Shown: piece by piece, positions 4,901 through 58,850 of the stretch | Layout: the number at the start of each line of letters is the position of its first letter | Numbering within the stretch: position 1 is the stretch's first letter | Virus genome (UHGV): UHGV-1380027 | Source: a virus | Reading direction: 5' to 3' (one strand) | DNA length: 64,000 nucleotides | Program-made: the position numbers and the translations under genes | Notes under the pieces: model-generated | Told to the model about the DNA's origin: nothing | Seen by the model: the letters and a program-made list of their open reading frames with translations, nothing else | Database searches by the model: none

Positions 4901-7540
4901 AGAGTAATCTCTCATATAGTCATAATCAGAGTATTTGTTTGCATCTTCGTTCCAACACATATTTAGGTTGGTACCGCCCATGCACACAATGTATTCTGCG
5001 ATATACTTATCGCTTCTGGTAGGAATACCTATGAACCATCTATTAACAGGCTCATCCCAAGCTGTGCGCTCATCTTTAACGCAGATAGCAATCCAGTCAT
5101 GTGTTCCTGTTTTCTTGCATACATCTCGCTTCATACCGTAGTAGAACTCTTTAGTATTCGGCTCAGGTGCATTTATCAGGTAACTCCATGCCTGATTTGC
5201 ATAAGTTCCATTGGTTCGCGGGTCATGATCAAAGGCATACATGATGATCCTTTCCCCACCAAGATGTTCGCCAAGAGTAACTTTGACATTCACATCGCCG
5301 TAACCATTGCGAACAACATCCATATTATCAATAGAGATGCCCCTAGGGGTGTAGGCAATTTTCAGAGAGCTATCTTCACTGGTGCCTCCAAGTGTAATCC
5401 CTATGTTGTTTGTTGTCCCGTCGGCATATCTTACTGTGGCTTCCCAGCGTATTCCGAAATATCCTGCATCATGGCTGACAATTTTCAGTGTACGAGCACC
5501 TGGGTGAGGTTTTCCAGGATCAGGCCAAGGGTCTGGGTGTTCGTGGACAGTCAACGACGTTCCGTTTTGCTCGTTAACCTGCAACATTTTACCGCCTCTG
5601 CCGTTAGGGTTGAACTCCCATACGGCCTGTGTCTGCACTAAGTTGTTGTAGGTATTTCGTCTCTGATCATAAATCTCTTGGGTAACATCATAGGTGACTG
5701 ATCCAGCATCCATTCTGTGGAGTCGGACCATATACGATGTATCTCCTTCTACCGCAGGCTGAGTCCCATTCAGCCCGAAGTATACAGTATCGTTAACATG
5801 GAACTGCTTGTTTCTACCAACGGTATGCCACTTACCGTCAGAAGGATACGCAGGAACTATGGTGTTCCAGTTCAAAGTCCTTGTCGTGTGAGTTCTTCCT
5901 GTGCCATGTTTGTCATGATAGGTTATTTTTACAGAGTACAGGCCACGTCTGTTAACATTCCTGTTATACTGAGTAACAACAACTTCGTTGGCCCCGCCGT
6001 GGTTCCAGTTGGTGGAGAATTGGTAATTTGCATCTGTAACAACCGTACCCGCAGCATTTACCAGTTCAATCTTGTCAATAATGAACGTAGCCCCCTCTGG
6101 CTGAGGCTTCAATTTCATCTTGACCGTGTCACCAATGTAAATATTGCTAACACTGCTAACACCGTTAACGTCAAAAATATCATCAACACCCCAACTGTCT
6201 ACTGGGACATTTTTATACCAATTCTCAGGAACCTCTGTGAACCCCTGACTATTAAGTCTGCCGCCAAACAGGTTGTTAGAGCCTGCAAAACTTCCCCTTG
6301 GGATGCCTGACCACCAAAGTTTACCATTAACAACAGTAAAGGTACCTAAAAAACCTTCTCTGTGAATGCCCTGGAAATAAACACTCTCTGTCCAGCTAAC
6401 TGGGAGGCGTTGCTCAACGTATTTGGCTGTGGCAAGAGCTTGATAGTGGATAAAATTGGCCCTAGGGTTATTGTTTGCAGATTGTGCGCCAATATCATTA
6501 CATAAGTTGCGAGAGAATCCGCGATACTGCTTAGTGCCATTATTGAAGAAAATGCCACTTGTTCCGTACCCACGAGCCATTATTACTTCATGGGTGTAGG
6601 TAATATTTAAGGAACGCCATGTATCATCTCCCCAGACATCTTGCCCGTAGAATACGTTAACAAGCTGCTGATCATTAGGCTTGTGCATCCTCTGCGTTGC
6701 AATTATCGCCCCGTTCGGACCACACATGAATCCTTTCCACTCCTCCTCTGCAGGAATGCCTTTCAAATCGTTGCGAGTAATCTGAGCAGGGGGCCAAACA
6801 AGGTCGTTTCTACTGTTGTTTCTCAGAAAGTCGTATCCAGCAATCCAAAAACCTCTGGGCCCACCGAAAATAACAGAGTTGTCATGCACCTCGCAGTTGA
6901 TACTTGGGTTTTTCCAAGGGCCTGTTTCAGGATTTTCCGATGTTTCACCAATCTTTACAGGGGTTGCATGCTGGTTCTTATCTACATGTAAAGATCCGTA
7001 GGTGTTGTTACCAGACCCGTACAGGTGTAAAATGCCGTCACCCTCAGCCTCTGCCATAACCCAAACAGTGTTGTTAATACCGCCCATTACCTCGATAAGG
7101 CGCTCTGGGTGGGTGTCAAGGTGCAATCCTTGAACAATCTGTTCCGGAAGAGGTGTCCACTCGTTTACGCAAACATCGTTACCACCTGCCGCAGTGGATC
7201 CGATAAGACCTGCAGTGCAGCCGATGTAGAAAAACTGGTTATCAAAAGTCCGGATCACAAACGCACGGTCTGCTCTCCACACATGATCAACATTCCAGGC
7301 CGTCTCGCTCGGGTAGTTTATAGGGTTACGATCCCCAGTGCGACACTCCCCGAACTTGTTATAGCCAGTAATATTAAGCTGACCATCGTCAAAAAGTATA
7401 GCTAAGCTATTTACATAAGCTACTGTAGTGCTTGTACCGTCACTGTTGTCTATTGGGTATGACAGAACAGCAAGTTCCTTAACTCCACCCCTCTTATCGA
7501 GGAAATGACGACCAAGTTTTAGCAAAGGGATTGGAAGCAT
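1904..7540 (-). CDS. giant multidomain tail fiber/adhesin-like structural protein
   Basis: 1878 aa ORF, last gene of the late operon; Gly/Asn/Thr-rich repetitive beta-type sequence; C-terminal stretch resembling bacterial Ig-like domains; position downstream of the fiber genes. Confidence 0.5.
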   Translation of the reverse strand: MLPIPLLKLGRHFLDKRGGVKELAVLSYPIDNSDGTSTTVAYVNSLAILFDDGQLNITGYNKFGECRTGDRNPINYPSETAWNVDHVWRADRAFVIRTFDNQFFYIGCTAGLIGSTAAGGNDVCVNEWTPLPEQIVQGLHLDTHPERLIEVMGGINNTVWVMAEAEGDGILHLYGSGNNTYGSLHVDKNQHATPVKIGETSENPETGPWKNPSINCEVHDNSVIFGGPRGFWIAGYDFLRNNSRNDLVWPPAQITRNDLKGIPAEEEWKGFMCGPNGAIIATQRMHKPNDQQLVNVFYGQDVWGDDTWRSLNITYTHEVIMARGYGTSGIFFNNGTKQYRGFSRNLCNDIGAQSANNNPRANFIHYQALATAKYVEQRLPVSWTESVYFQGIHREGFLGTFTVVNGKLWWSGIPRGSFAGSNNLFGGRLNSQGFTEVPENWYKNVPVDSWGVDDIFDVNGVSSVSNIYIGDTVKMKLKPQPEGATFIIDKIELVNAAGTVVTDANYQFSTNWNHGGANEVVVTQYNRNVNRRGLYSVKITYHDKHGTGRTHTTRTLNWNTIVPAYPSDGKWHTVGRNKQFHVNDTVYFGLNGTQPAVEGDTSYMVRLHRMDAGSVTYDVTQEIYDQRRNTYNNLVQTQAVWEFNPNGRGGKMLQVNEQNGTSLTVHEHPDPWPDPGKPHPGARTLKIVSHDAGYFGIRWEATVRYADGTTNNIGITLGGTSEDSSLKIAYTPRGISIDNMDVVRNGYGDVNVKVTLGEHLGGERIIMYAFDHDPRTNGTYANQAWSYLINAPEPNTKEFYYGMKRDVCKKTGTHDWIAICVKDERTAWDEPVNRWFIGIPTRSDKYIAEYIVCMGGTNLNMCWNEDANKYSDYDYMRDYSCNQWFNQSTGYPPRQARVNPAIFTDTQVFLTKQANEVQTFKNKYDPNKWFYNCYGAFFWGPGELPNGGSCFEAATYASDRFMGQVKKYKIIPGPETLGNAVDPYIIMTALRSNMDGTSISMQVPVTNGYKRVVMIIKCDLIGKQVLAENGTSTHLFETALHYQFADSPFAGDKRISDTDNTRCKKFMLGGGWWWYEFDLTDKFTDTSKVVTGLRLDLGENMHKSVCDGTYGDPTIYLKYVSFEHPEDVVYGPKLRLFGSWIAKDRVGMGKKVRGFLVDAGTEDMLVNAVWPELPGTQWDNSAKSINWFNIHRAMWTTNCYLWKELNDGAFGFTGGRRMAIICWTTLQRCYDHDYEIGGRAWKNIRDRIITNFADPNGGGAYGFDCSRLIHLNGSSAYKKEGYSGSMIERGLVKDARVLMGQQLAAAIGPNAVQSVKPAWFDIPIWSSGTPGTAAINPTTGDLEISWEDLKQVGGWDKTGYQVQWWRSDGSLAADEFVKDNFYTMSSVKAQQLFGQATPSTITMSMCCKDNRTGALGPRVAKVFSGIKWNLPVQSVSWKQIGDNKLLVTPACQFNATLNVDPAVAANSAKASDFSVSNTAMADVRKIDTLNARITCKNTYGTFQIINNFTDADSKVVRTASQTMQLGTLAYSALITEQSPTLQGGGVGKLITTPVWKPNEWVVFDLTVDFSSDNNWTWVRNCLSQLMGGPSSVSDSHDSTDPSVFQVGKTHPETGETLPDRKYALVCISYGKADVTFSGTHAYNGTYNFSRKYSLKAGNIIDEVGALYNPGNGIGIVGGKLQMQEPSITPSNVSGIRKTWESSNTNIATVDATTGLVTFKAPGNVTIKFVATDDAGRKTSSTSFTVKQMTPQWRMWIGTATNGAYPNPAGTSGMKTFATSKPMEYGSGPKVGQMVYFGAYIPEIIGLPRSQLQLLFGAGVDDLATFGYSDNIEAARSSGWVGFRMESGKEGRILGTASIGVMFPGDQQYRLGAYATFSL

Positions 7541-7588: not shown

Positions 7589-9334
7589 TTAACGTTGTGC
7601 AATAACCACATCCACAATATCACCAACACCACAATATGTCAATTGTAGCAAGGTGACACTGTTGGCTTTGTTGTTAATAACAGGAGTAGCCGACAGTATG
7701 GCATATTTATCGTGTAAAGTCACGTTGTGGCCTACAGCATCCTGAATGACATAGATGATTGCAGTGAACGGGTAAGGTTTATCTTCAGCCGATGTTCCAG
7801 GCCATTGCCCTATTGTAAAATCCCCTTTCGCGTGGACAACATACATATTGGCCTGCCCGTTAGGTGTCCATGTCCCACTAGATGCGTCAGCCTCCTCTAA
7901 GTCAAACTCCACCTTCCCTGCATGGAAAGCAGGGGCAGTAATAGTTTTACCAGCTTCAATTTCTTGAGAGGTGGTTATCTTGCCACTAGAGTTAATGCCA
8001 TTACAGACAAAGTTGACATTAGAGAAGTCTGGCAGCCACCCAGTCACTGTACCTGATATTTCAAGGTTGTGAAGGTGGGTGGTGCCAGTCCCTGCTGCGT
8101 TTAAACTAACATCTCCATTTACCTGCAAGTTTCTGGTAACGTTGCAGTTTTCAGAGTTTGCAGTTGTTGCAGTTAAAGTGGTGGTTGTCAGCTCGGTAAT
8201 TACACCTTTGTTGGCTGTAAGTCCTTCTCCTTCAAAAGTGGCACGCTCATTCACCCTCAGAGTATTTAAAGATATGTTCTGGACAGATGCTGTGCCACGA
8301 ATGACTATAGATCCTCCAACCTCTAAATCTCCATTGATCAGTGCATCTCCCGTGCTTTCAATATAGCTAGGGTAGATCATGGTGCCATCTACAGAGTAGG
8401 TTATCCCTGTAACGGTGCCTGTCACCTCAAGGTTCTTAACCCTAGTGGTCCCATCAACCTGCAATGTCGGTTCGGTGGCTGCCTTCATGGCATTACCGCG
8501 AATGTACACGTAGTCAAAAAAGTTATTACCTAGACCATCAAAATGCACATCGTTGTTATTAGCCACTGGTTTCCCAGAAGTTATAGTGTCAGCTATAACT
8601 CTGTGAGTTGATACTTCATGAGGTTGCAGCTCTGTGCTCCTCCAGTCTGCATGCTTAGGATCGCTCCACGCAAAAGTCAGTGTAGAAGTATTTGCCGTAA
8701 GGATTAGGTTCCTGAAGCGTGCAGTAGAATCTGCTCCATTAACAGGTCCGTGTAAGGTAAGGGTACCCCCAACTATAGTGTTAGCAAGTTCTGTAAGACC
8801 TTTTACCACCAAAGATCCTACAGTAACTTTCATCCCCTCCATGGCTTTAAATATGCTATCCACATAGTCAACAACAAACTCTGTGTTTGCTATAGACTCG
8901 GACTTATCATCCATTGGAGGTGTAGGTACTCTCGGGTCACCTTCGAACCTTGGGCTGTTAAGTTTTGCGTAGTATTTTGCCATTACTGCAGAGTCGGTGT
9001 ATAATCTCCAGTTCGGAGATTGTGAAGGATCTGCTGGCATCCTAACCGGGTTAGATTTTGACGCTGCTGGAGCGTACCACCACTGAGGGCCTGTATCTCC
9101 TTTAAACTCATACAGCTGGTTAAAAACTGTTGTGGATGCACCATACGCCCAAGGGATCGGTGGCGTTTTAAAATAAAGGTTGTCAAGCATGGCTTTTCGT
9201 ACCGTAGGGATAGTGGTCCCATCCTCTACGACAACTTCATCCACAGCGTTACCGTTGACAACCAAGTGCAAACGTTCAGAATCAACAATTACTTGATCTA
9301 CCGCCTGCTCGAAGCTTGTCATGTCTTGCGCCAT
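7589..9334 (-). CDS. tail fiber/tailspike protein
   Basis: 581 aa, Thr/Gly/Asn-rich repeats typical of beta-helical fibers; co-oriented within the fiber cluster. Confidence 0.45.
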   Translation of the reverse strand: MAQDMTSFEQAVDQVIVDSERLHLVVNGNAVDEVVVEDGTTIPTVRKAMLDNLYFKTPPIPWAYGASTTVFNQLYEFKGDTGPQWWYAPAASKSNPVRMPADPSQSPNWRLYTDSAVMAKYYAKLNSPRFEGDPRVPTPPMDDKSESIANTEFVVDYVDSIFKAMEGMKVTVGSLVVKGLTELANTIVGGTLTLHGPVNGADSTARFRNLILTANTSTLTFAWSDPKHADWRSTELQPHEVSTHRVIADTITSGKPVANNNDVHFDGLGNNFFDYVYIRGNAMKAATEPTLQVDGTTRVKNLEVTGTVTGITYSVDGTMIYPSYIESTGDALINGDLEVGGSIVIRGTASVQNISLNTLRVNERATFEGEGLTANKGVITELTTTTLTATTANSENCNVTRNLQVNGDVSLNAAGTGTTHLHNLEISGTVTGWLPDFSNVNFVCNGINSSGKITTSQEIEAGKTITAPAFHAGKVEFDLEEADASSGTWTPNGQANMYVVHAKGDFTIGQWPGTSAEDKPYPFTAIIYVIQDAVGHNVTLHDKYAILSATPVINNKANSVTLLQLTYCGVGDIVDVVIAQR

Positions 9335-9619: not shown

Positions 9620-10666
9620 TTAAGCATAAGATATAGTGATCCATTGACCGTTTACAAATTTTTGAATGGCACCAGTCCAATAGTCGCCTTGATACGGGTG
9701 TTTATAGGCGTAATTGCCGGAGCACATTACATGCCCAGGGTATACTCTTGATTCTCTGTAGGTGGTTCTGAAACGGTTTGCTATCCTTACATCTTCAACA
9801 CCCCTACTAGGCATAGGAATAGTAAGGTTACCACTGCTATCTGCGCTGCTACCATTTACCCTGCGGACCACGTTTCTCCCACCAACTGTTGCATATTGAC
9901 CCCTGGCGGTGTTATCGTTACAATCCACTCTTCCACCTATTTGAGCGCTGCCGCAGGATTGTTGTCCATTAACAGTGGCTCTTGGTATCGTTACCGCATT
10001 AGCATTTGCAGAGGAGCTTTTTGCATCATTGCATTCAAGATTCCCTTGGATAGCCAGTCTTGCACGGTTGGCAGTTATAGCATTAAGCTTCATAGCCGAA
10101 AACACAGGCTGCCCACCAGAAGGTTGAAATCTCCAACGGAAACCGTCTATTTGGTGAGAAGGATCATCAAGGTCTGTGCCGTCAGCGCCGCCGATGTTGT
10201 CCATAATCCAGAAATCCATCATCGTTTTGTCTGGAGTTATGGTGGTGTATATCGCTGCATTGTCTGTTGACGCGGATGCAAACTCGATTCTTTGAAGACC
10301 CAAAGTTTGAGTCTGGGTCATTGTGTCCCCAGTCTTGTCAACATACAGGTCATCCATTTCTTCAGGCGAGTATACATTGAGGACTTTACGTGCAGCAGCT
10401 TTGTCTGGAACGTCTGCCAGATTATTAGTGACCCTTAAGAATCTATTATCCCATCCAGGGACAACATCTTCTGTTAAATGCTTTAGCCACGCAGAGAGCA
10501 TGTGGAGTTCAAAGTTAACAACTTCACATGCTATCCTTTGTGTCATATCCCAACCTTTCAATCTCTCTTCTTTGTTCGGTTGAGACTTGTTCAACTCTCC
10601 TGTATTTTCAAGCACAACATCCTGATTGGCCCAAATATCGAGAGGGATAACTGGTTTAGTCATCAC
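9620..10666 (-). CDS. tail fiber protein (paralog B)
   Basis: 348 aa; N-terminus (PLDIWANQDVVLENT...) and C-terminus (KFVNGQWITISYA) parallel the 11679-12719 product, centre diverged; C-terminal motif resembles phage P2 gpH-type fiber tips. Confidence 0.5.
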   Translation of the reverse strand: MMTKPVIPLDIWANQDVVLENTGELNKSQPNKEERLKGWDMTQRIACEVVNFELHMLSAWLKHLTEDVVPGWDNRFLRVTNNLADVPDKAAARKVLNVYSPEEMDDLYVDKTGDTMTQTQTLGLQRIEFASASTDNAAIYTTITPDKTMMDFWIMDNIGGADGTDLDDPSHQIDGFRWRFQPSGGQPVFSAMKLNAITANRARLAIQGNLECNDAKSSSANANAVTIPRATVNGQQSCGSAQIGGRVDCNDNTARGQYATVGGRNVVRRVNGSSADSSGNLTIPMPSRGVEDVRIANRFRTTYRESRVYPGHVMCSGNYAYKHPYQGDYWTGAIQKFVNGQWITISYA

Positions 10667-10753
10667 ATTCTCCTGAGAAAATTCCTTAAGGACTATTTTA
10701 ACACTTTAGAGAACAAAATGCAAGAACGGCATCCTTACCGTTCTTACCTTTGT

Positions 10754-11068
10754 TTACCTTTTACTATGCTCTACAAGCATGTGCAAAATCTTTTGTACAT
10801 CAGCTCGGATACCGGAGACATCTGTCCTGACATCTTGCTTAAGGTCGTTAATATCGGCCTCTAGCTTACTTAACCGGGTCTCGATAATGGAATCAAGTCT
10901 ATCTTTTGTAACCATGCTATTTTTCACTAAAATGAGGTCTTTCTCCAGCTCATCCAACCTCTTGGAAATGCCTTTCCATTTGGTGTGCCACTGGTTGAAA
11001 GCCCATACACAGATCGGGACAACGGTACCCATGCAGATACCGTACAATGCCGCCAAATCCAACTCCAC
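10754..11068 (-). CDS. membrane-anchored coiled-coil protein
   Basis: 104 aa: one N-terminal hydrophobic helix (LAALYGICMGTVVPICVWAF) then a heptad-like charged region; function not assignable. Confidence 0.3.
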   Translation of the reverse strand: MELDLAALYGICMGTVVPICVWAFNQWHTKWKGISKRLDELEKDLILVKNSMVTKDRLDSIIETRLSKLEADINDLKQDVRTDVSGIRADVQKILHMLVEHSKR

Positions 11069-11079
11069 AACACCTCCTC

Positions 11080-11664
11080 TTAGAGGGTAGGTCGTTCCGG
11101 GAAGAAAATGTCAGGGGCTTTAGATGTATCTATTTCAAGAAGTTTTACCCTGTACATTTTCAAATCTCTGATGTTGCGTTTTTGGTCATCAGTAAGATCG
11201 TATTCAAGGTCAATCATGTCTTGATAGGCACCAATTCTAGCAGTAGCCCAAGCAAGTTCTGTCTCTATGACACCCTCTGCCTGTTGAACAAAGAATTCAT
11301 TGTCTGTGACAAATTCATCACCAACTAAACGCAAAGCGTCGTGGTGGAGCATAATGTTTTCTGGTACCTCTTCTTTTTTGGCGATAACCACACGAAGACC
11401 TGGAGCAGGCCACAAGGCATCAGGTTCTTCTGTAGATGTCTTAAGAATACCCTTCTCGTCAACAAGTAAGAAGATACAGCCGGGATTTTCTTGTCGCAGT
11501 GTTCGTGATTGCACATACCAATCGCCATCATCATTACGTAAAAAATATCCAGTGTATGCTGTGTAATCCTCAACCTCCTGAGGAGTCAGCTCCTTGGTCT
11601 CCTTGTTGGTGTAGTATTCGCCAGATCCCGGTTGGTAAAGTTTAAACTCTTGAAGTATTTTCAT
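11080..11664 (-). CDS. tail fiber assembly chaperone (Tfa-like)
   Basis: 194 aa directly downstream of a fiber gene; size and C-terminal region (MYRVKLLEIDTSKAPDIFFPERP) consistent with Caudovirales fiber assembly proteins. Confidence 0.45.
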   Translation of the reverse strand: MKILQEFKLYQPGSGEYYTNKETKELTPQEVEDYTAYTGYFLRNDDGDWYVQSRTLRQENPGCIFLLVDEKGILKTSTEEPDALWPAPGLRVVIAKKEEVPENIMLHHDALRLVGDEFVTDNEFFVQQAEGVIETELAWATARIGAYQDMIDLEYDLTDDQKRNIRDLKMYRVKLLEIDTSKAPDIFFPERPTL

Positions 11665-49209: not shown

Positions 49210-49286
49210 TGGTCTCCACGGAGTGATTCGAACACTCGACCTCCTGATCCCAAATCAGGCGCTCTACCAAGCTGAGCTACGCGGAG
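49210..49286 (-). tRNA. tRNA-Pro (anticodon TGG)
   Basis: Hand-folded cloverleaf: acceptor CTCCGCG/CGTGGAG (one G-U), T arm GAGTG-TTCGAAT-CACTC, anticodon loop TTTGGGA, encoded CCA. Confidence 0.7.
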
Positions 49287-49297
49287 TATTTATTATT

Positions 49298-49372
49298 TGG
49301 TGGCCCTGGGTGGAATTGAACCACCGTCTGGCGATTATGAGTCGCTTGCTTGAACCTTCCAGCTACAGGGCC
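49298..49372 (-). tRNA. tRNA-Met or Ile2 (anticodon CAT)
   Basis: Acceptor GGCCCTG/CAGGGCC, T arm GGTGG-TTCAATT-CCACC, anticodon loop CTCATAA, encoded CCA; CAT cannot distinguish Met from lysidine-modified Ile. Confidence 0.65.
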
Positions 49373-49373
49373 A

Positions 49374-49449
49374 TGGTGCTGATGGCAGGACTTGAACCTG
49401 CAACCTATTGATTACAAATCAATTGCACTGCCAATTGTGCTACATCAGC
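49374..49449 (-). tRNA. tRNA-Thr (anticodon TGT)
   Basis: Acceptor GCTGATG/CATCAGC, D stem GCAC/GTGC, anticodon stem ATTGA/TCAAT with loop TTTGTAA, T arm GCAGG-TTCAAGT-CCTGC, encoded CCA; 1-nt spacer from the previous tRNA. Confidence 0.75.
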
Positions 49450-49453
49450 AAAA

Positions 49454-49552
49454 GGTGCTAGGTGATGGAATCGAACCATCTATGTATTCAACGACTACCT
49501 CGTCTATTTTCAGGATTAAAAATCCTCGCCCTTGCCAAAGGGCTTACCTAGC
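49454..49552 (-). tRNA. atypical tRNA-like gene (about 99 nt; anticodon loop TTTTTAA, possibly TTT)
   Basis: Perfect 7-bp acceptor GCTAGGT/ACCTAGC, D arm GCCC-TTTGGCAA-GGGC, T arm GATGG-TTCGATT-CCATC, but about 31 nt between anticodon stem and T arm; no encoded CCA. Confidence 0.35.
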
Positions 49553-49650
49553 TCAGTATGTTGACCATGTTGCTAGTCGGCGATGACGACTGTAACATTT
49601 GATAATCCGGTTCTGCTTCCGGCTTTCGCTTAATTACAAGGTCAACAATA

Positions 49651-49741
49651 TGGCAGAGGATAATGGAATCGAACCATCATCGAGTCATCCTCAACGGGAC
49701 GGTTTTCAAGACCGCTTGAGCACCATTGCTCCCTACCCTCT
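49651..49741 (-). tRNA. tRNA-Ser (anticodon TGA)
   Basis: Acceptor AGAGGGT/ATCCTCT (one G-U), anticodon arm GCGGT-CTTGAAA-ACCGT as in bacterial tRNA-Ser, long variable arm, T loop TTCGATT, discriminator G, encoded CCA. Confidence 0.6.
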
Positions 49742-49855
49742 TTTATAAACAATACTGATAATGACACTGATTTTCGAGCAGTTAGTGACTAGTATAAACG
49801 ACGATAAATATCAATGCCATTATCTGTATGATTTATGCATTTAAAAATATAAATT

Positions 49856-49943
49856 TGGTGGTGAGTGATGGAGTCGAACCACCCGAATCGCAATGATAAC
49901 AGATTTACAGTCTGCCCCGCTACCCCTACGGAATTAACTCACC
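49856..49943 (-). tRNA. tRNA-Tyr (anticodon GTA)
   Basis: Acceptor GGTGAGT/ACTCACC, anticodon arm GCAGA-CTGTAAA-TCTGT, long variable arm, T arm GGTGG-TTCGACT-CCATC, encoded CCA. Confidence 0.7.
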
Positions 49944-50073
49944 TAAATACTAATATTTAAATTCTTTTTAAAATAGCTAGTGTTCTAACCACTAACTATG
50001 AGGTATCGGTAAAGTGGTTACCGCCACTTGCCGAAGATTTACTCTGCTAAAGTAAGCTACATTAAAAAGAACT

Positions 50074-50148
50074 TGGCACCCCGTACTGGACTCGAACCAG
50101 TGTCAACGGCTTAGAAGGCCGCTGCTTTATCCACTAAGCTAACAGGGC
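50074..50148 (-). tRNA. tRNA-Arg (anticodon TCT)
   Basis: Acceptor GCCCTGT/ACGGGGT (two G-U), D stem GCTT/AAGC, anticodon arm GCGGC-CTTCTAA-GCCGT, T arm ACTGG-TTCGAGT-CCAGT, encoded CCA. Confidence 0.65.
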
Positions 50149-50206
50149 ACTGGGTGGCTTTCTTTTACACCTGAGCCGCCAGAAAAGGTGGGAGACCATG
50201 TTTATA

Positions 50207-50235
50207 ATATTACACTGTTAGGCAAAGTTTGTCAA
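50207..50235 (-). promoter_or_regulatory. sigma70-like promoter for the tRNA cluster
   Basis: On the minus strand TTGACA, 17-bp spacer, TAATAT; lies about 50 nt upstream of the first tRNA 5' end. Confidence 0.5.
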
Positions 50236-50244
50236 GAAAATATT

Positions 50245-50583
50245 TTAACTATTGCCAACAGGCTGTATTTCTGTGGTAAATGGCATAAAAGGTGCTGGTT
50301 TTTCAGCCTCTTCCACTACCACCTCTTCCTCTTCACCAAACATCTCATCATATTCTTCCTGCATTCGGTCTGCCTTATCAAGAACATACTCTGCAATGCT
50401 TTGACGAATATTTTGTTTGGTTTTCGGGTCCAACATCAGCTCTCTTAAAACTTTGTGAGCTTCTGGAACCATCGCTATAAAAGATTCCTTCATATCAAGA
50501 ATGTTCTTCTCTAGCTGAATGGCGTTGGACTCCTCTTTCAGAGGTCTGCCTCTACGGCGACGCTTTTTAGTTGTATCCGCCAT
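50245..50583 (-). CDS. small protein with basic N-terminus and acidic C-terminus
   Basis: Start trimmed to an internal ATG (50581-50583) preceded by RBS GGAGGAAAC; N-terminus KKRRRRGRPLKEE, C-terminus EEEEVVVEEAE; the listed longer ORF runs into a non-coding GC-rich island. Confidence 0.4.
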   Translation of the reverse strand: MADTTKKRRRRGRPLKEESNAIQLEKNILDMKESFIAMVPEAHKVLRELMLDPKTKQNIRQSIAEYVLDKADRMQEEYDEMFGEEEEVVVEEAEKPAPFMPFTTEIQPVGNS

Positions 50584-50928
50584 GTTTCCTCCATTATCAC
50601 GTGATAGGTGGATTTTATCACGGCAAATACTGATTGTCAAGTTCGCCGCAGGGTGGTATTCCCTGCGACTTGCCCAGCGTCCTGGACCAGCAAGACCCAA
50701 CAAGTGGGTTACCAGATACCCATTACCGCGCTCTGGCTCGACCTTATTACAGGTTGGCTGGGGTCACATCGTCATGTGCTGGCTGCCCCTACCATTTTAA
50801 GTGTGGTGCACTATCAAGCCCTCTAAGGGGAACTCAGCCTTCTCCGAACCCTGTTTCAAAGCATCCGGAGATAAAGCCATCAAACTCATCTTTAAATTGG
50901 ATATTCATCATGATACACGAAAACAACC

Positions 50929-51171
50929 TCATTGTAAAGCACAAATAAATAAAACATACTTAATTTGTTTGTTATCAGGCTCAGGGTAGAAGTAGAAGAT
51001 CTTGCTATCACCGATCTGAACACCACCATCCCAACAGCATAACCCATAACCAGTATTCATACAAGCTAAGTCGTTGGCAAAATCTATTGCATCATCTAGT
51101 GCACGAAATTCACCTTCATCTTCTAAATAATCCTCATTCATGGAACGGAAAACGAGCTTAACCTTAAACAT
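50929..51171 (-). CDS. hypothetical protein
   Basis: 80 aa, co-oriented ORF. Confidence 0.3.
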   Translation of the reverse strand: MFKVKLVFRSMNEDYLEDEGEFRALDDAIDFANDLACMNTGYGLCCWDGGVQIGDSKIFYFYPEPDNKQIKYVLFICALQ

Positions 51172-51247
51172 AGCATTACCTGTAGACCTCGTAAGTTAAA
51201 ATTGTATCACATCATATTGCAGATCTTATCAGGTAACATTATTTTTG

Positions 51248-51436
51248 TCAACAGATTCCGGCCTTATCCCTCCTGTCTGCGTATTCTTTAATCGCAACCT
51301 CACCTGCATTGGTAACCAGATCTTCAAAGTAATTCTCAAGCTCCTCGTCAATGTCCGGTGACCAGCTCTTTTTCCTGTCAGTGTGAATTGCAGACTTGTT
51401 GAACTTATTACAATTCTTTGCTACCGGATTGTTCAT
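51248..51436 (-). CDS. hypothetical protein
   Basis: 62 aa, co-oriented ORF. Confidence 0.25.
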   Translation of the reverse strand: MNNPVAKNCNKFNKSAIHTDRKKSWSPDIDEELENYFEDLVTNAGEVAIKEYADRRDKAGIC

Positions 51437-51446
51437 TAAGCTCTCC

Positions 51447-52025
51447 TCAACGTTCGTAGTAAATCTTATTCAACATTACCTCATCGTTTGCAGAAAGGAT
51501 ATCAAGATATGCATCACCAAATCTGCCTGCAACAACCTCTGCATGATACATCACTTCGTTAACATCGTCAAGAGTGATAACCGGATGACCATATCTTTCT
51601 GAATATTGTCTCAGTGTGCGATGTAACGAGTCGTCATCATATGCAGACTTTTTAATATCACAAACACGACGAATGGCCTTGATGTCGAAAAAACCTGTGC
51701 GATACCACCCAAGAAAAAAGTTCCGTGTAGTGTCAACATCTACACCAATACCATTAAGAACCTTATCTACAAGATAGCTGTCATCCTTTGGACTAGCGTC
51801 CTTAGTGCGAATGTAGTTGCCATCTTTTCCAGGTGATAGCTCCTTCTCATCACCAACCTGCATGCCATCATTTGGCGGTGTTAGCCACTTATCAGGATGC
51901 TTACGATCACGAGCGTTAGAATGATTACGCTGGAAACCTGGCTTCCACTTGAAAGTTTTCTCCATCTGTTCTTCATTCTGATAACGTTTTGCAATCTTTT
52001 CACTGGCATCTTTGCGTGAACTCAT
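51447..52025 (-). CDS. hypothetical protein
   Basis: 192 aa, charged; first gene downstream of the origin-like region. Confidence 0.35.
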   Translation of the reverse strand: MSSRKDASEKIAKRYQNEEQMEKTFKWKPGFQRNHSNARDRKHPDKWLTPPNDGMQVGDEKELSPGKDGNYIRTKDASPKDDSYLVDKVLNGIGVDVDTTRNFFLGWYRTGFFDIKAIRRVCDIKKSAYDDDSLHRTLRQYSERYGHPVITLDDVNEVMYHAEVVAGRFGDAYLDILSANDEVMLNKIYYER

Positions 52026-52529
52026 AGCAGACTCCTCTTCAAGTTATAGAAAAACTCACTGTATCGCTTTGTAACGAGCTTTTCTATCAAACTGGTGCGA
52101 TTGCCTTACTTGGTATAGTTTATATAGCTGTGGAGCGATTTAGGGGCCTTCTTGTCAGTTTCCACACATAAACTTTATCCGAACTCGCGCGGGAGGCTCT
52201 CAACCGACTCCTTCCGGCGCTGGCAAGCTTTCGTCGGTGGTCCACATTAGTGCTCGGCCTTTGGCCTGCGCTATCGCTTCGCTCCCACACATGTTAACAG
52301 TCCTGCATGTATGCACTTCTGTTATTGTGTGCACTATGGAGGCCCGGCATCTCGCCCCTCGTAGGCGAGTGCCAATGAAGGGCCGACACTACCCATAATA
52401 AGTAATAAATTTAAAACATGGTACTTAGGATCTAGTATATTCTACATAAGTTAAGTATATGTACTTTAGTACCATAAGTACTAGATCTTTTATTTTTTAT
52501 TATTTAGTTATTTTAGTTATATTCTTTAT

Positions 52530-52612
52530 GTGTCCGTATCACGGACAGTTAGTGTCCGTATTACGGGCAGATGTGTCCGCGTGACGGACAGTAGTGTCCG
52601 TATCACGGACAG
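52530..52612. repeat. four tandem 19-bp palindromic iteron/operator units
   Basis: GTGTCCGTATCACGGACAG at 52530 and 52594 (perfect 7-bp arms TGTCCGT/ACGGACA), one-mismatch variants at 52552 and 52573; 21-22 bp phasing. Confidence 0.8.
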
Positions 52613-52686
52613 TTACTAACTTCTGTTCCAGAGTGAACATAAAACATACAAATCCTTATAGTACAGATGTTTAAGTTTTTACTGGT

Positions 52687-53037
52687 CTAACCAGTTGTTG
52701 ACATTCGAATAACTTCTTCTGGTGGCAAAACTTTGGAAAATGTGCATCTTTTACCTCTCCCTTGTGTGGATATTTCAACCACTCCTGCACATTCTAAAGT
52801 TTTAACGCACGCTGCTGCTTTTGTTTTCTTTATCCCAACATCTGCTGCAATTTTCCTTGTGCTGGGTGTGAAGCGTGAATTTTCTCCAAGCTTATACCAG
52901 TTGTGCAGGTAGCAGTATACGATCTTGTCATATAAGTCAAGAACAACAACCTCCCCAGTTGTGTCATTCAAAACTTTTGACATAGACAGTATTTCAAGGG
53001 GGACTTTAAGATATAGCAGCTTATCCCCATCTTTCAT
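52687..53037 (-). CDS. small helix-turn-helix DNA-binding protein
   Basis: 116 aa; segment TRKIAADVGIKKTKAAACVKTLECAGVV resembles a helix-turn-helix; gene ends 75 bp from the palindrome array. Confidence 0.35.
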   Translation of the reverse strand: MKDGDKLLYLKVPLEILSMSKVLNDTTGEVVVLDLYDKIVYCYLHNWYKLGENSRFTPSTRKIAADVGIKKTKAAACVKTLECAGVVEISTQGRGKRCTFSKVLPPEEVIRMSTTG

Positions 53038-57311: not shown

Positions 57312-57567
57312 TCTTGCTAAACCTGTAGAAGCACACCAGTTTGACGGAAGCTCTTCATCAGTATCTGATCTGCAACGGTGGATTGATACAGGTGTGTTTA
57401 CACCGTCACCTGTTCGGACCAGAGATATTCTTCGCATGTGTGAGCTTGTCGAGCCGTTTGGTAACCTGGTCTTGTACCAAGGGGATTGGTTAGTTGACTT
57501 TATGGGAGACTGGTTGGTAATGAGCAAAGAAGAGATGTTTAAAATTTTTAAGGAAGAGGCTGAGTAA
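57298..57567 (+). CDS. hypothetical protein
   Basis: 89 aa; RBS AGGAGGA upstream; stop overlaps the ligase start. Confidence 0.3.
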   Translation: MPLFNLAKPVEAHQFDGSSSSVSDLQRWIDTGVFTPSPVRTRDILRMCELVEPFGNLVLYQGDWLVDFMGDWLVMSKEEMFKIFKEEAE

Positions 57568-58850
57568 TGCATCAGATCAAAACAACACTGTACGCACTGA
57601 ACAAAGATGGCAGCTACCAACAGTGGAAAGTATTCACGGATGGTGATAAGGTTATCGTAGAGTTTGGCAAGCTTGATGGTAAACTGCAATACAAAGAGAC
57701 GATCTGTACACCTAAGAACGTGGGCCGTGCCAATGAAACTACAGCTGAGCAACAGGCTGAGCTGGAAGCGATCAGTAAGTGGGAAAAACAAGTCCGTCTG
57801 GGGTATGTTGAAAATATGGAAGATTGCGAGCAGGGGGTTGACCTTTTACCCATGCTGGTGCATGACTACCTGAAGCGTGGAAAGGCACTTAAATTACCTT
57901 GCTGGATCTTGCGTAAGTTAGATGGCCTTCGTCTACTGGTTGTTTTCCAAAACGGTGAGCCTAAATTTATTTCCCGTGGTAATAAGTCCTACCCTATTCA
58001 AGGAAAGCTTCTGGAGCAACTTCGTTCTTTCCACTTCACCACCGGGATTAAACAGCTCGACGGAGAGATCTATATTCATGGTCTGCCTCTGCAGAAAATA
58101 GTGTCTCTTGCTAAACGTTGGCGCACACAGGAAGAGATTCAGGCCGAGATCGATAAAGACTACGAGGCAGATAAAAAACGCCGTCATGCCGCAATTAAGG
58201 CAGGCTTATCAACATACAAAAACTTCAATAAGGTAGATATTCCTGTTGATGTTGAGCCTGTTCGTGATGATTTGCGTTACGGAGGGTACTGTAGCTATGA
58301 CTTAGAGTATCATATTTTCGACATCCCTAGTGACAAGGTATGGTGGGATCCGGAAACAGAATCTGGACGATGCAAGGATCTTATGGATGCAGAAGATACC
58401 ATTACCACTCTGATGCTTGACCATATCAAGGTTGTTGACGCAGAGCTTGCGTACACAGTTGATCATTGCGAAGAATCTGTTGGTGTATTCATGTCCGAAG
58501 GATATGAAGGTACTATCATGCGTAACTTCTGTGGTAAATACGAATACGGTCAGCGAACATCTGAAGCATTGAAATGGAAAAAGTTCAACGATGCTGAGGT
58601 GAAAGTTATTGACGTTGAGAAAGATAAGAATGATGAAGGTGTTCTTATCTGTGTTGACAAGGAGGGTATCGTTGTTAAAATGAAGATGAAAGGTACGCAC
58701 GAGGAGCGTAGCTATGACAGGATGCAGGAAATGATCGGCAAGTTTGTCACCTTCAAATATCAAGCAAGGACAGAAGACAACAACTACCAATTCCCTGTCG
58801 GCATCTGCGTCCGAAATGTTAACCCGGACACTTGGGAGGTTCTGGAATGA
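57567..58850 (+). CDS. ATP-dependent DNA ligase
   Basis: 427 aa; motif I RKLDGLR (KxDG adenylation lysine) with downstream Gly-rich ligase-like blocks. Confidence 0.65.
   Translation: MHQIKTTLYALNKDGSYQQWKVFTDGDKVIVEFGKLDGKLQYKETICTPKNVGRANETTAEQQAELEAISKWEKQVRLGYVENMEDCEQGVDLLPMLVHDYLKRGKALKLPCWILRKLDGLRLLVVFQNGEPKFISRGNKSYPIQGKLLEQLRSFHFTTGIKQLDGEIYIHGLPLQKIVSLAKRWRTQEEIQAEIDKDYEADKKRRHAAIKAGLSTYKNFNKVDIPVDVEPVRDDLRYGGYCSYDLEYHIFDIPSDKVWWDPETESGRCKDLMDAEDTITTLMLDHIKVVDAELAYTVDHCEESVGVFMSEGYEGTIMRNFCGKYEYGQRTSEALKWKKFNDAEVKVIDVEKDKNDEGVLICVDKEGIVVKMKMKGTHEERSYDRMQEMIGKFVTFKYQARTEDNNYQFPVGICVRNVNPDTWEVLE

Follow-up and report, generated by a model that had tools for sequence, protein, structure and literature searches.

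What does a GC-rich gap between small phage genes encode? The gap considered here lies at positions 50585–50930 of the window, by which we mean the whole 64,000-nt stretch of virus genome UHGV-1380027 that was analysed, and a sequence-only reading had offered two explanations for it: a second structured RNA, or a promoter or operator for a phage factor that recurs in another GC-rich island near 52.2 kb. Comparison with related phages leads us to favour, with moderate confidence, the reading that the minus strand of about 50833–50641 encodes a multi-helix non-coding RNA of ~190 nt, rather than a protein or a repeated operator.

The island and its genomic setting

By sequence, the phage is a Vequintavirus, an rV5/FV3-like coliphage: the 2.6 kb around the island share 99.9% identity with Escherichia phage vB_EcoM-ECP26, and about 118 rV5/FV3-like phages of that genus exceed 95% identity here. 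Eighteen GenBank records (MG0656xx) titled 'Campylobacter phage', with C. jejuni as the host, are also 96–99% identical to this Vequintavirus across the region, which suggests that they are mislabelled or contaminating phages. The island is genuinely GC-rich (0.50–0.535 across 50500–50900, compared with about 0.37–0.42 in its flanks), and the minus strand carries every gene around it. Downstream (3') of the adjoining gp070-family gene lies a tRNA cluster, and the RNA-repair genes for polynucleotide kinase, phosphoesterase and RNA ligase are located just past 53 kb. In other Vequintavirinae genera, tRNA genes are found directly upstream of the gp070 homologue and the element described below is absent.

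Three smaller observations concern these neighbours. In Mydovirus, Seunavirus, Henunavirus, Avunavirus and Certrevirus, the gp070 homologue sits among the clustered tRNA genes. The product of the gp070-family gene begins with MADTTKKRRRRGRPLKEES (KKRRRRGRP), an N-terminus that is Arg-rich or AT-hook-like. At 49454–49552, ARAGORN reports a 99-nt tRNA-like gene with a four-base anticodon ('tRNA-???'), annotated in relatives as tRNA-Lys or tRNA-OTHER, which may be an unusual or intron-containing tRNA.

The island itself is composite, consisting, in minus-strand order, of a probable mini-ORF (50911–50834), the putative RNA (~50833–50641) and the promoter, UTR and ribosome-binding site of the next gene (50640–50584) (Table 1). 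Its earlier description as non-coding thus holds for the RNA part, but not for the first 78 nt, where a 25-codon ORF shows five synonymous changes among Vequintaviruses (GAG>GAA, TCC>TCT, TTT>TTC, GGG>GGA, TTC>TTT) and two non-synonymous ones, both in the last codon; because of this pattern, the ORF probably codes for a protein. Some GenBank records annotate it, and a sister lineage (L088, L138, L151, L171, L174 and L175, known only from metagenomes and IMG/VR) retains MKDEFDGF* alone. In this phage, a candidate promoter at the end of the upstream gene would serve the RNA as well as the mini-ORF.

At the other end of the island, TTGACA-17-TGaTAAAAT (50640–50612) matches the promoter consensus at 11 of 12 positions, carries the TG extension of an extended -10, and is annotated in rV5 as sigma-70 promoter P74. 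The inverted repeat GTGATA..TATCAC (50621–50601) that had been pointed out here is present, one base away from where it had been placed (arms at 50601–50606 and 50616–50621); it overlaps the extended -10, and its left arm reads ATGATA in most relatives, so it is not conserved. The downstream gene does start at the ATG at 50583 and is preceded by the strong ribosome-binding site GGAGGAAA, as had been noted.

Table 1. Features of the island and its surroundings, in coordinates of the window
Feature	Coordinates	Strand	Basis or details
Candidate sigma-70-like promoter, TTTACA-17-TATCAT	50910..50938	-	Consensus scan only, 10/12 matches
25-codon ORF, probably coding, MMNIQFKDEFDGFISGCFETGFGEG*	50834..50911	-	ORF list and substitution pattern
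Putative structured non-coding RNA body, ~193 nt, GUUCCCCUUAGAGGG... to ...CCCUGCGGCGAAC	50641..50833	-	RNAalifold and pair counts
5' segment of the RNA	50800..50829	-	Hairpin CCCU/AGGG (50829-50819) and invariant CUUGAUAGUGCACCACACU, capped helix AGUG-CACCA-CACU (50812-50800)
SroH-like core	50717..50794	-	P2, J2/3, P3, UCGAG, P4, GGUAAUGGG; covariance model R1, 52.6 bits, E 1e-13
Vequintavirus-specific 3' hairpins H5, H6, H7	50645..50709	-	
H5, ACCCA/UGGGU	50709-50695	-	
H6, GUCCAG-GACG-CUGGGC	50687-50672	-	
H7, GUCGCAGGG-AAUACCA-CCCUGCGGC	50669-50645	-	Contains the perfect hairpin of the sequence-only reading
Promoter, 5' UTR and ribosome-binding site of downstream gene	50584..50640	-	Consensus scan; rV5 annotation
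Downstream gene, rV5 gp070 family, PHROG 3330	50245..50583	-	
tRNA cluster, six or seven genes	49210-50148		ARAGORN and Rfam

Conserved pairing on the minus strand

To describe the RNA region, 13 distinct Vequintavirus sequences were folded together with RNAalifold, which yielded eight helices. In these sequences 99.7% of helix cells are paired, as against at most 45% in slid controls, and four pairs are altered on both sides, a count that none of 500 shuffles matched. One of these changes is in H5 (A-U>U-A) and three are in H6 (U-A/U-G/C-G; C-G/U-A; C-G/U-A/U-G), where G-U intermediates are among the variants. The hairpin CGCAGGG-TGGTATT-CCCTGCG, found exactly where it had been reported (50647–50667), forms part of H7, whose 9-bp stem is invariant and whose loop varies at five of seven positions. 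Overall, variable columns are rarer in stems than elsewhere (10/90 versus 25/108, p=0.04).

The 5' segment and the core can also be compared with the sister lineage. The CUUGAUAGUGCACCACACU segment, within which falls the ATAGTGCAC motif singled out earlier, is unchanged in 19 sequences from the two lineages. In the window, P2 is formed by UGGU-A-GGGG / CCCC-A-GCCA and encloses the hairpin CACAU-GACG-AUGUG; the sister lineage has GGAAC/GUUCC in place of GGGG/CCCC and CUACG-GACG-CGUAG as the inner hairpin. P3 (ACCU-GUAAUA-AGGU, 50754–50741) follows, then UCGAG, the P4 mini-helix (50737–50728) and GGUAAUGGG (50727–50719). As judged from these alignments, we have shown that the RNA sequence is conserved as a set of helices whose pairing is kept through compensatory changes; that it exists as a discrete RNA species is what we infer from this.

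The strand of the RNA is indicated by several lines of evidence that agree with one another: the conserved G-U pairs, which are compatible with the minus strand only, the promoter of the sister lineage, and the terminators that follow the related module in L303 (a phage sequence) and in E. coli sroH all point to the minus strand. The ends were placed as follows. In the sister lineage, which retains the same flanking genes, the consensus promoter TTGACA-17-TATACT ends about 7 nt before GTTCCCC (GTTCCCCTTAGAGGGCTTGATAGTGCACC), which was used to set the 5' end, and the promoter of the next gene comes about 170 nt further on; in the window, the -35 of the downstream gene's promoter was taken as the 3' limit. 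No T-run follows H7, and hence it is not an intrinsic terminator, nor were any terminator-like sites found on the minus strand between 50000 and 52800.

Folding energies add little to this picture. The thermodynamic z-scores of the island are modest (minus strand, -2.1; plus strand, -1.5), and the compact relatives described below range from -0.9 to +1.5, which is not significant, with minimum free energy folding still recovering their helices P1–P3.

An SroH-like core shared among phages

The conserved core was used to build a covariance model, R1, which was trained on phage sequences only and is roughly calibrated. With this calibration, R1 matches sroH at 33.2 bits (E 1.5e-9 in E. coli K-12 and 3.9e-9 in O157; about 1e-5 once scaled to the whole genome), and both matches fall inside the annotated non-coding RNA b4691, on the same strand, with CUGAA-GAAA-UUCAG as P2. 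In addition, a permissive Rfam scan of one compact relative (L344) gave a weak match to sroH (11.8 bits, E 0.68), and the Rfam sroH consensus GGUCAAGGCauaGUCCGGUAAuGG is nearly equal to the Vequintavirus variant L164. The connection surfaced only through the covariance model: blastn of the island against E. coli genomes returned no match, and the Rfam sroH model (RF00372) has no match in the window at its gathering threshold (80 bits), nor any at E<=10 over 50100–52700. By Rfam's own criterion, then, the phage RNA is outside the sroH family.

SroH is an E. coli small RNA that has been without an assigned function since 2003. Of 5426 complete E. coli genomes, 3738 carry it; the RNA occurs in processed forms, and its deletion renders cells sensitive to envelope stress. 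Its elements, arranged as in the phage RNA and on the same strand, are a P2 hairpin, ..CAA, an ACCU..AGGU helix, UCAAG, a GC/GC mini-helix, CGGUAAUGG and a closing helix; on these comparisons, the phage RNA is shown to have both the conserved sequence of the core and the order of the helices in common with genuine SroH. The differences are also considerable. SroH (RF00372, b4691) is a chromosomal gene of about 161 nt located between thiH and yjaZ, with its own promoter and intrinsic (Rho-independent) terminator. The phage RNA, in contrast, resides in a Vequintavirus genome, has a dedicated promoter in the sister lineage only, lacks a terminator, and possesses a P2 domain that is much larger, a 5' segment that appears to be permuted and three extra 3' hairpins. 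It is therefore most likely, judging by sequence and helix order, a new, rearranged phage variant of an SroH-type RNA.

Other known classes were compared with the island as well. The Rfam scan proposed in the earlier reading was run, and no family reaches threshold for either GC-rich island; with Rfam 15, which was searched for riboswitches, self-cleaving ribozymes and phage motifs at both gathering and permissive thresholds, only tRNA and chance-level matches were obtained. ARAGORN and Rfam are silent for tRNA and tmRNA in 50585–50930. Decayed tRNA genes, considered in view of the tRNAs that other genera have at this place, were rejected, there being no cloverleaf and no ARAGORN call. The motifs GGUAAUGG and CCCAAGC resemble HDV-like and twister ribozymes; this resemblance was set aside, with no Rfam match and a helix topology that does not fit. 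Finally, vs.8 and YjaZ, encoded next to the phage T4 element described below and to sroH, were compared in case they formed a conserved protein partner, but they are not homologues.

The core is also found well beyond Vequintaviruses. Positions 50717–50761 (45 nt) have 91–95% identity to sequence left unannotated in about 560 records of T4-like phages, and the T4 version of the element, which is flanked by denV and by the true vs.8 start, matches 1040 records. A core of ~65 nt (P2, a ..CCAA linker, P3 ACCU/AGGU, UCGAG, a P4 of 2–3 bp and GGUAAUGG) recurs in T4-like and in unrelated phages, in the latter within or beside tRNA clusters. Same-strand tRNAs lie near the module in L344, L334, L355 and L403: it is upstream of them in L344 and L403, downstream of them in L355, and directly after tRNA-Glu in L334, a 360-kb phage. 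In L303, an intrinsic terminator follows the module. These members were collected by pattern scans, among which the scan of genome contigs, most of the metagenome scan and the degenerate viral scan gave mainly chance k-mer matches. We found no description of this phage element in the literature.

Compact members share one plan: P1; an A-rich J1/2; P2; ..CCAA; P3 (ACCU-loop-AGGU); UCRAG; P4 (2–3 bp); CGGUAAUGRG; and P1', with P1 being UUGUGAC/GUCACAA in L344 and UAUUUAC/GUAAAUA in T4-likes. To examine pairing across the family, 22 sequences were placed in a curated alignment (A5) in which the P2 strands were chosen by eye and the P2 interior is a placeholder, a procedure that biases pair counts toward structure. 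With that bias, 89.8% of pairs form, compared with 47% or less in slid controls, and the covariation score is 0.435 versus 0.14 in shuffles (0/500). All five P2 pairs covary in this by-eye arrangement, with at least 10 different helices, and the P4 pair 45–52 is C-G in 19 sequences, G-C in one and U-A in one; P3 is invariant, so it is uninformative on covariation. A second, model-fitted alignment (A6) mis-registers P2 in members with long P2 inserts and was left out of the counts.

The T4 element has the same P2-P3-P4 layout as the window RNA, with the 91–95% identity of the T4-likes in the 45-nt core. It is compact, about 105 nt, closed by its UAUUUAC/GUAAAUA helix, and has neither the 3' hairpins nor the CUUGAUAGUGCAC segment at the 5' side; it precedes vs.8, and the T4 tRNA cluster is about 6 kb away. 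The window RNA lies beside phage tRNA genes. Because the Vequintavirus 5' segment (UUCCCCUUAGAGGGCUUGAUAGUG-CACCA-CAC) is similar to the compact form's 3' tail together with P1 (UUCCGGGGUUAGUAGUCAC; UUCC..GGGGUUAGUAGUCAC), the Vequintavirus RNA would appear to be a circular permutation of the P1-closed form, with P1 loop-capped and the ends between GGUAAUGGG and UUCC.

Several side observations were made in these relatives. The annotated start of T4 vs.8 is inside the element (L145, 2793–2935; NC_000866, ~64,790–64,935, minus strand), and vs.8 homologues begin at MRTFLTG, 117 nt further downstream; T4 vs.8 has thus probably been annotated too long, with the wrong start codon. L344 (~5100–5700), L355 (~10300–10800) and L403 (~8600–9100) contain arrays of different structured units beside their tRNA genes, bracketed by conserved complementary flanks (..CAUUUCCGUUGUG.. 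/ ..CACAACAGGUAAUG..) that look like RNase III-type excision stems. In L355, the stretch 10995–11130, which lies downstream of the SroH-like unit by a few hundred nt, weakly matches permuted tmRNA (33.7 bits, against a gathering score of 47) and also beta-proteobacterial tmRNA, and is not called by ARAGORN.

Possible function and competing explanations

The compensatory changes, together with the homology to a broad family of RNAs, E. coli SroH among them, support the first of the two options raised at the outset, a structured RNA. We propose that host sigma-70 RNA polymerase would transcribe it early and leftwards, from its own consensus promoter in the sister lineage and here probably from the upstream promoter, in a transcript shared with the mini-ORF. 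Lacking a terminator, this transcript would extend through the gp070 and tRNA genes, and trimming would then release the RNA as a stable species. Most likely the RNA would act in trans, its invariant single-stranded junctions contacting a protein or a second RNA, as has been proposed for SroH and for other stable phage RNAs; a stable RNA of this trans-acting kind is our best guess. The best functional analogy is provided by T4 RNAs C and D (rnaC and rnaD, or 'species 1 and 2'), which are small stable phage RNAs at a tRNA gene cluster; no sequence relationship to them was found, and in the T4 locus including rnaC and rnaD, R1 matches only the denV-vs.8 element.

A bolder version of this proposal, to which we give little credence, is that the SroH-like module defines a large class, so far overlooked, of compact RNAs with four helices, invariant junctions and circularly permuted topologies; such RNAs could be catalytic or act in tRNA processing or as decoys rather than as base-pairing small RNAs. 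It is suggested by the tolerance of permutation, the processing-type contexts and the processed forms of SroH, which are hallmarks of small self-cleaving ribozymes or of RNAs acting on tRNA transcripts.

If the SroH-type reading is true, a little-studied bacterial RNA appears to be part of a much wider, mostly unannotated phage RNA family, and a further kind of stable RNA, beyond tRNAs and the T4 RNAs C and D, would be added to phage RNA gene clusters. T4 would then offer a tractable system for finding the function of SroH-type RNAs, and the vs.8 start in T4 and several 'hypothetical protein' calls in phages would need correction. With a core shared among more than 1000 T4-like genomes, rV5-like phages and phage tRNA clusters, the junctions and covarying helices would amount to a testable structural model.

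The explanation that competes best with a free-standing RNA, though we consider it unlikely, is that of a cis-acting leader or processing element, in a 5' UTR or between cistrons, that controls or insulates the gp070/vs.8 and tRNA transcript by binding a protein or ligand, by RNase processing or by self-cleavage. The absence of a terminator between the RNA and the downstream gene would suit such an element, but in both the window and the sister lineage a full-strength promoter stands between the two, so that the gene needs no leader. Similarly, in T4-like phages and Av-05 the module is almost always directly upstream of a vs.8 homologue, yet across the family the downstream genes vary (gp070, vs.8, an IpII-like gene, tRNAs or none). 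Processing is suggested by the SroH processed forms and by the long complementary flanks of L344-type units, which resemble RNase III sites; the intrinsic terminators that end L303 and sroH argue instead for independent genes.

It is also improbable, in our view, that the island is the boundary of a mobile or recombinational cassette, or a decaying relic, in which case a horizontally acquired DNA homology patch of ~45–80 bp would have no RNA function here. Repeats of ~70 bp reportedly flank the internal-protein genes of T-even phages, a description said to go back to Repoila and colleagues in 1994. Two copies of the present element flank an internal-protein (IpII-like) gene in Klebsiella phage K65, and these repeats, like PeSLs, are conserved intergenic sequences bordering variable early-gene cassettes in T4-type phages. 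PeSLs (promoter-early stem-loops), the precedent for this explanation, are short stem-loops fused to an early promoter that occur in many dispersed copies bordering variable ORFs (PMC4122927). The window element lacks this anatomy: it occurs once, and it belongs to a family of multi-helix units of ~65–190 nt with invariant junctions and covarying stems, which places it outside the PeSLs. Horizontal movement would account for the 91–95% identity across unrelated phage families, for the T4-type cassette carried by Av-05, and for the absence of the island, with tRNA genes in its place, in other Vequintavirinae genera. A homology patch, however, would not be expected to keep pairing on one strand through G-U intermediates and compensatory changes, or to acquire the dedicated consensus promoter of the sister lineage, and helices that are wholly different between lineages around invariant junctions are the reverse of what it predicts.

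That the island codes small proteins throughout, as in some GenBank records with hypothetical proteins annotated here, is very improbable: plus-strand ORFs of 72–104 aa and a minus-strand ORF extension do exist, but indels of 1–2 nt break the frames even among Vequintaviruses more than 95% identical (RNA region of 193–197 nt), open stretches in homologues span 19–72 codons on either strand with no common start or stop, and coding-like behaviour is confined to the 25-codon ORF. The plus-strand ORFs had already been regarded as not credible; they are spurious, and their frames in homologues indeed have no conserved start, stop or length. Peptide coding, sense or antisense, was also considered for the 45-nt core (LDLITG frame) and rejected, with no start or stop conserved.

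Equally implausible is the second of the original options, by which both GC-rich islands would carry a repeated motif, GTGNGCACTAT, serving as promoter or operator for recognition by a phage factor; we regard it as largely refuted already. Of the 19-mer that both islands had been reported to contain (GTGGTGCACTATCAAGCCC), the window holds only one copy, even when up to three mismatches are allowed. What the islands do share is the 9-mer GTGCACTAT, found in both and nowhere else in the 64 kb, together with a loose by-eye likeness in motif order; the 9-mer is within chance, as 13 of 100 shuffles give at least two copies of it. In the 52.2-kb island it reads TTGGCGCAC or TTGGTGCAC in most other Vequintaviruses, being mutated at three of nine positions, and in the present island it is inside the conserved RNA segment CUUGAUAGUGCACCACACU and away from gene starts; neither copy is at a promoter position. 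Aligning the two islands with each other revealed no global homology. The 52.2-kb island has no match to R1, and among seven Vequintaviruses it displays no compensatory change and many substitutions that break predicted pairs.

With filters off, R1 recovers the island as the element's single copy in the window. The next match (58396–58461, minus strand; 18.3 bits, E 0.003) is antisense within a 427-aa plus-strand ORF (57567–58850) and was treated as chance. The 52.2-kb island itself is a GC-rich intergenic block (52100–52400). Beside an AT-rich stretch within 52400–53037, four copies of a palindromic GTGTCCGT..ACGGACA repeat are present at 52520–52620, adjoining a gene that matches a PHROG 'replication initiation protein' and Pfam HTH_36/DUF6945; from their sequence, these repeats look like an iteron-type replication origin.
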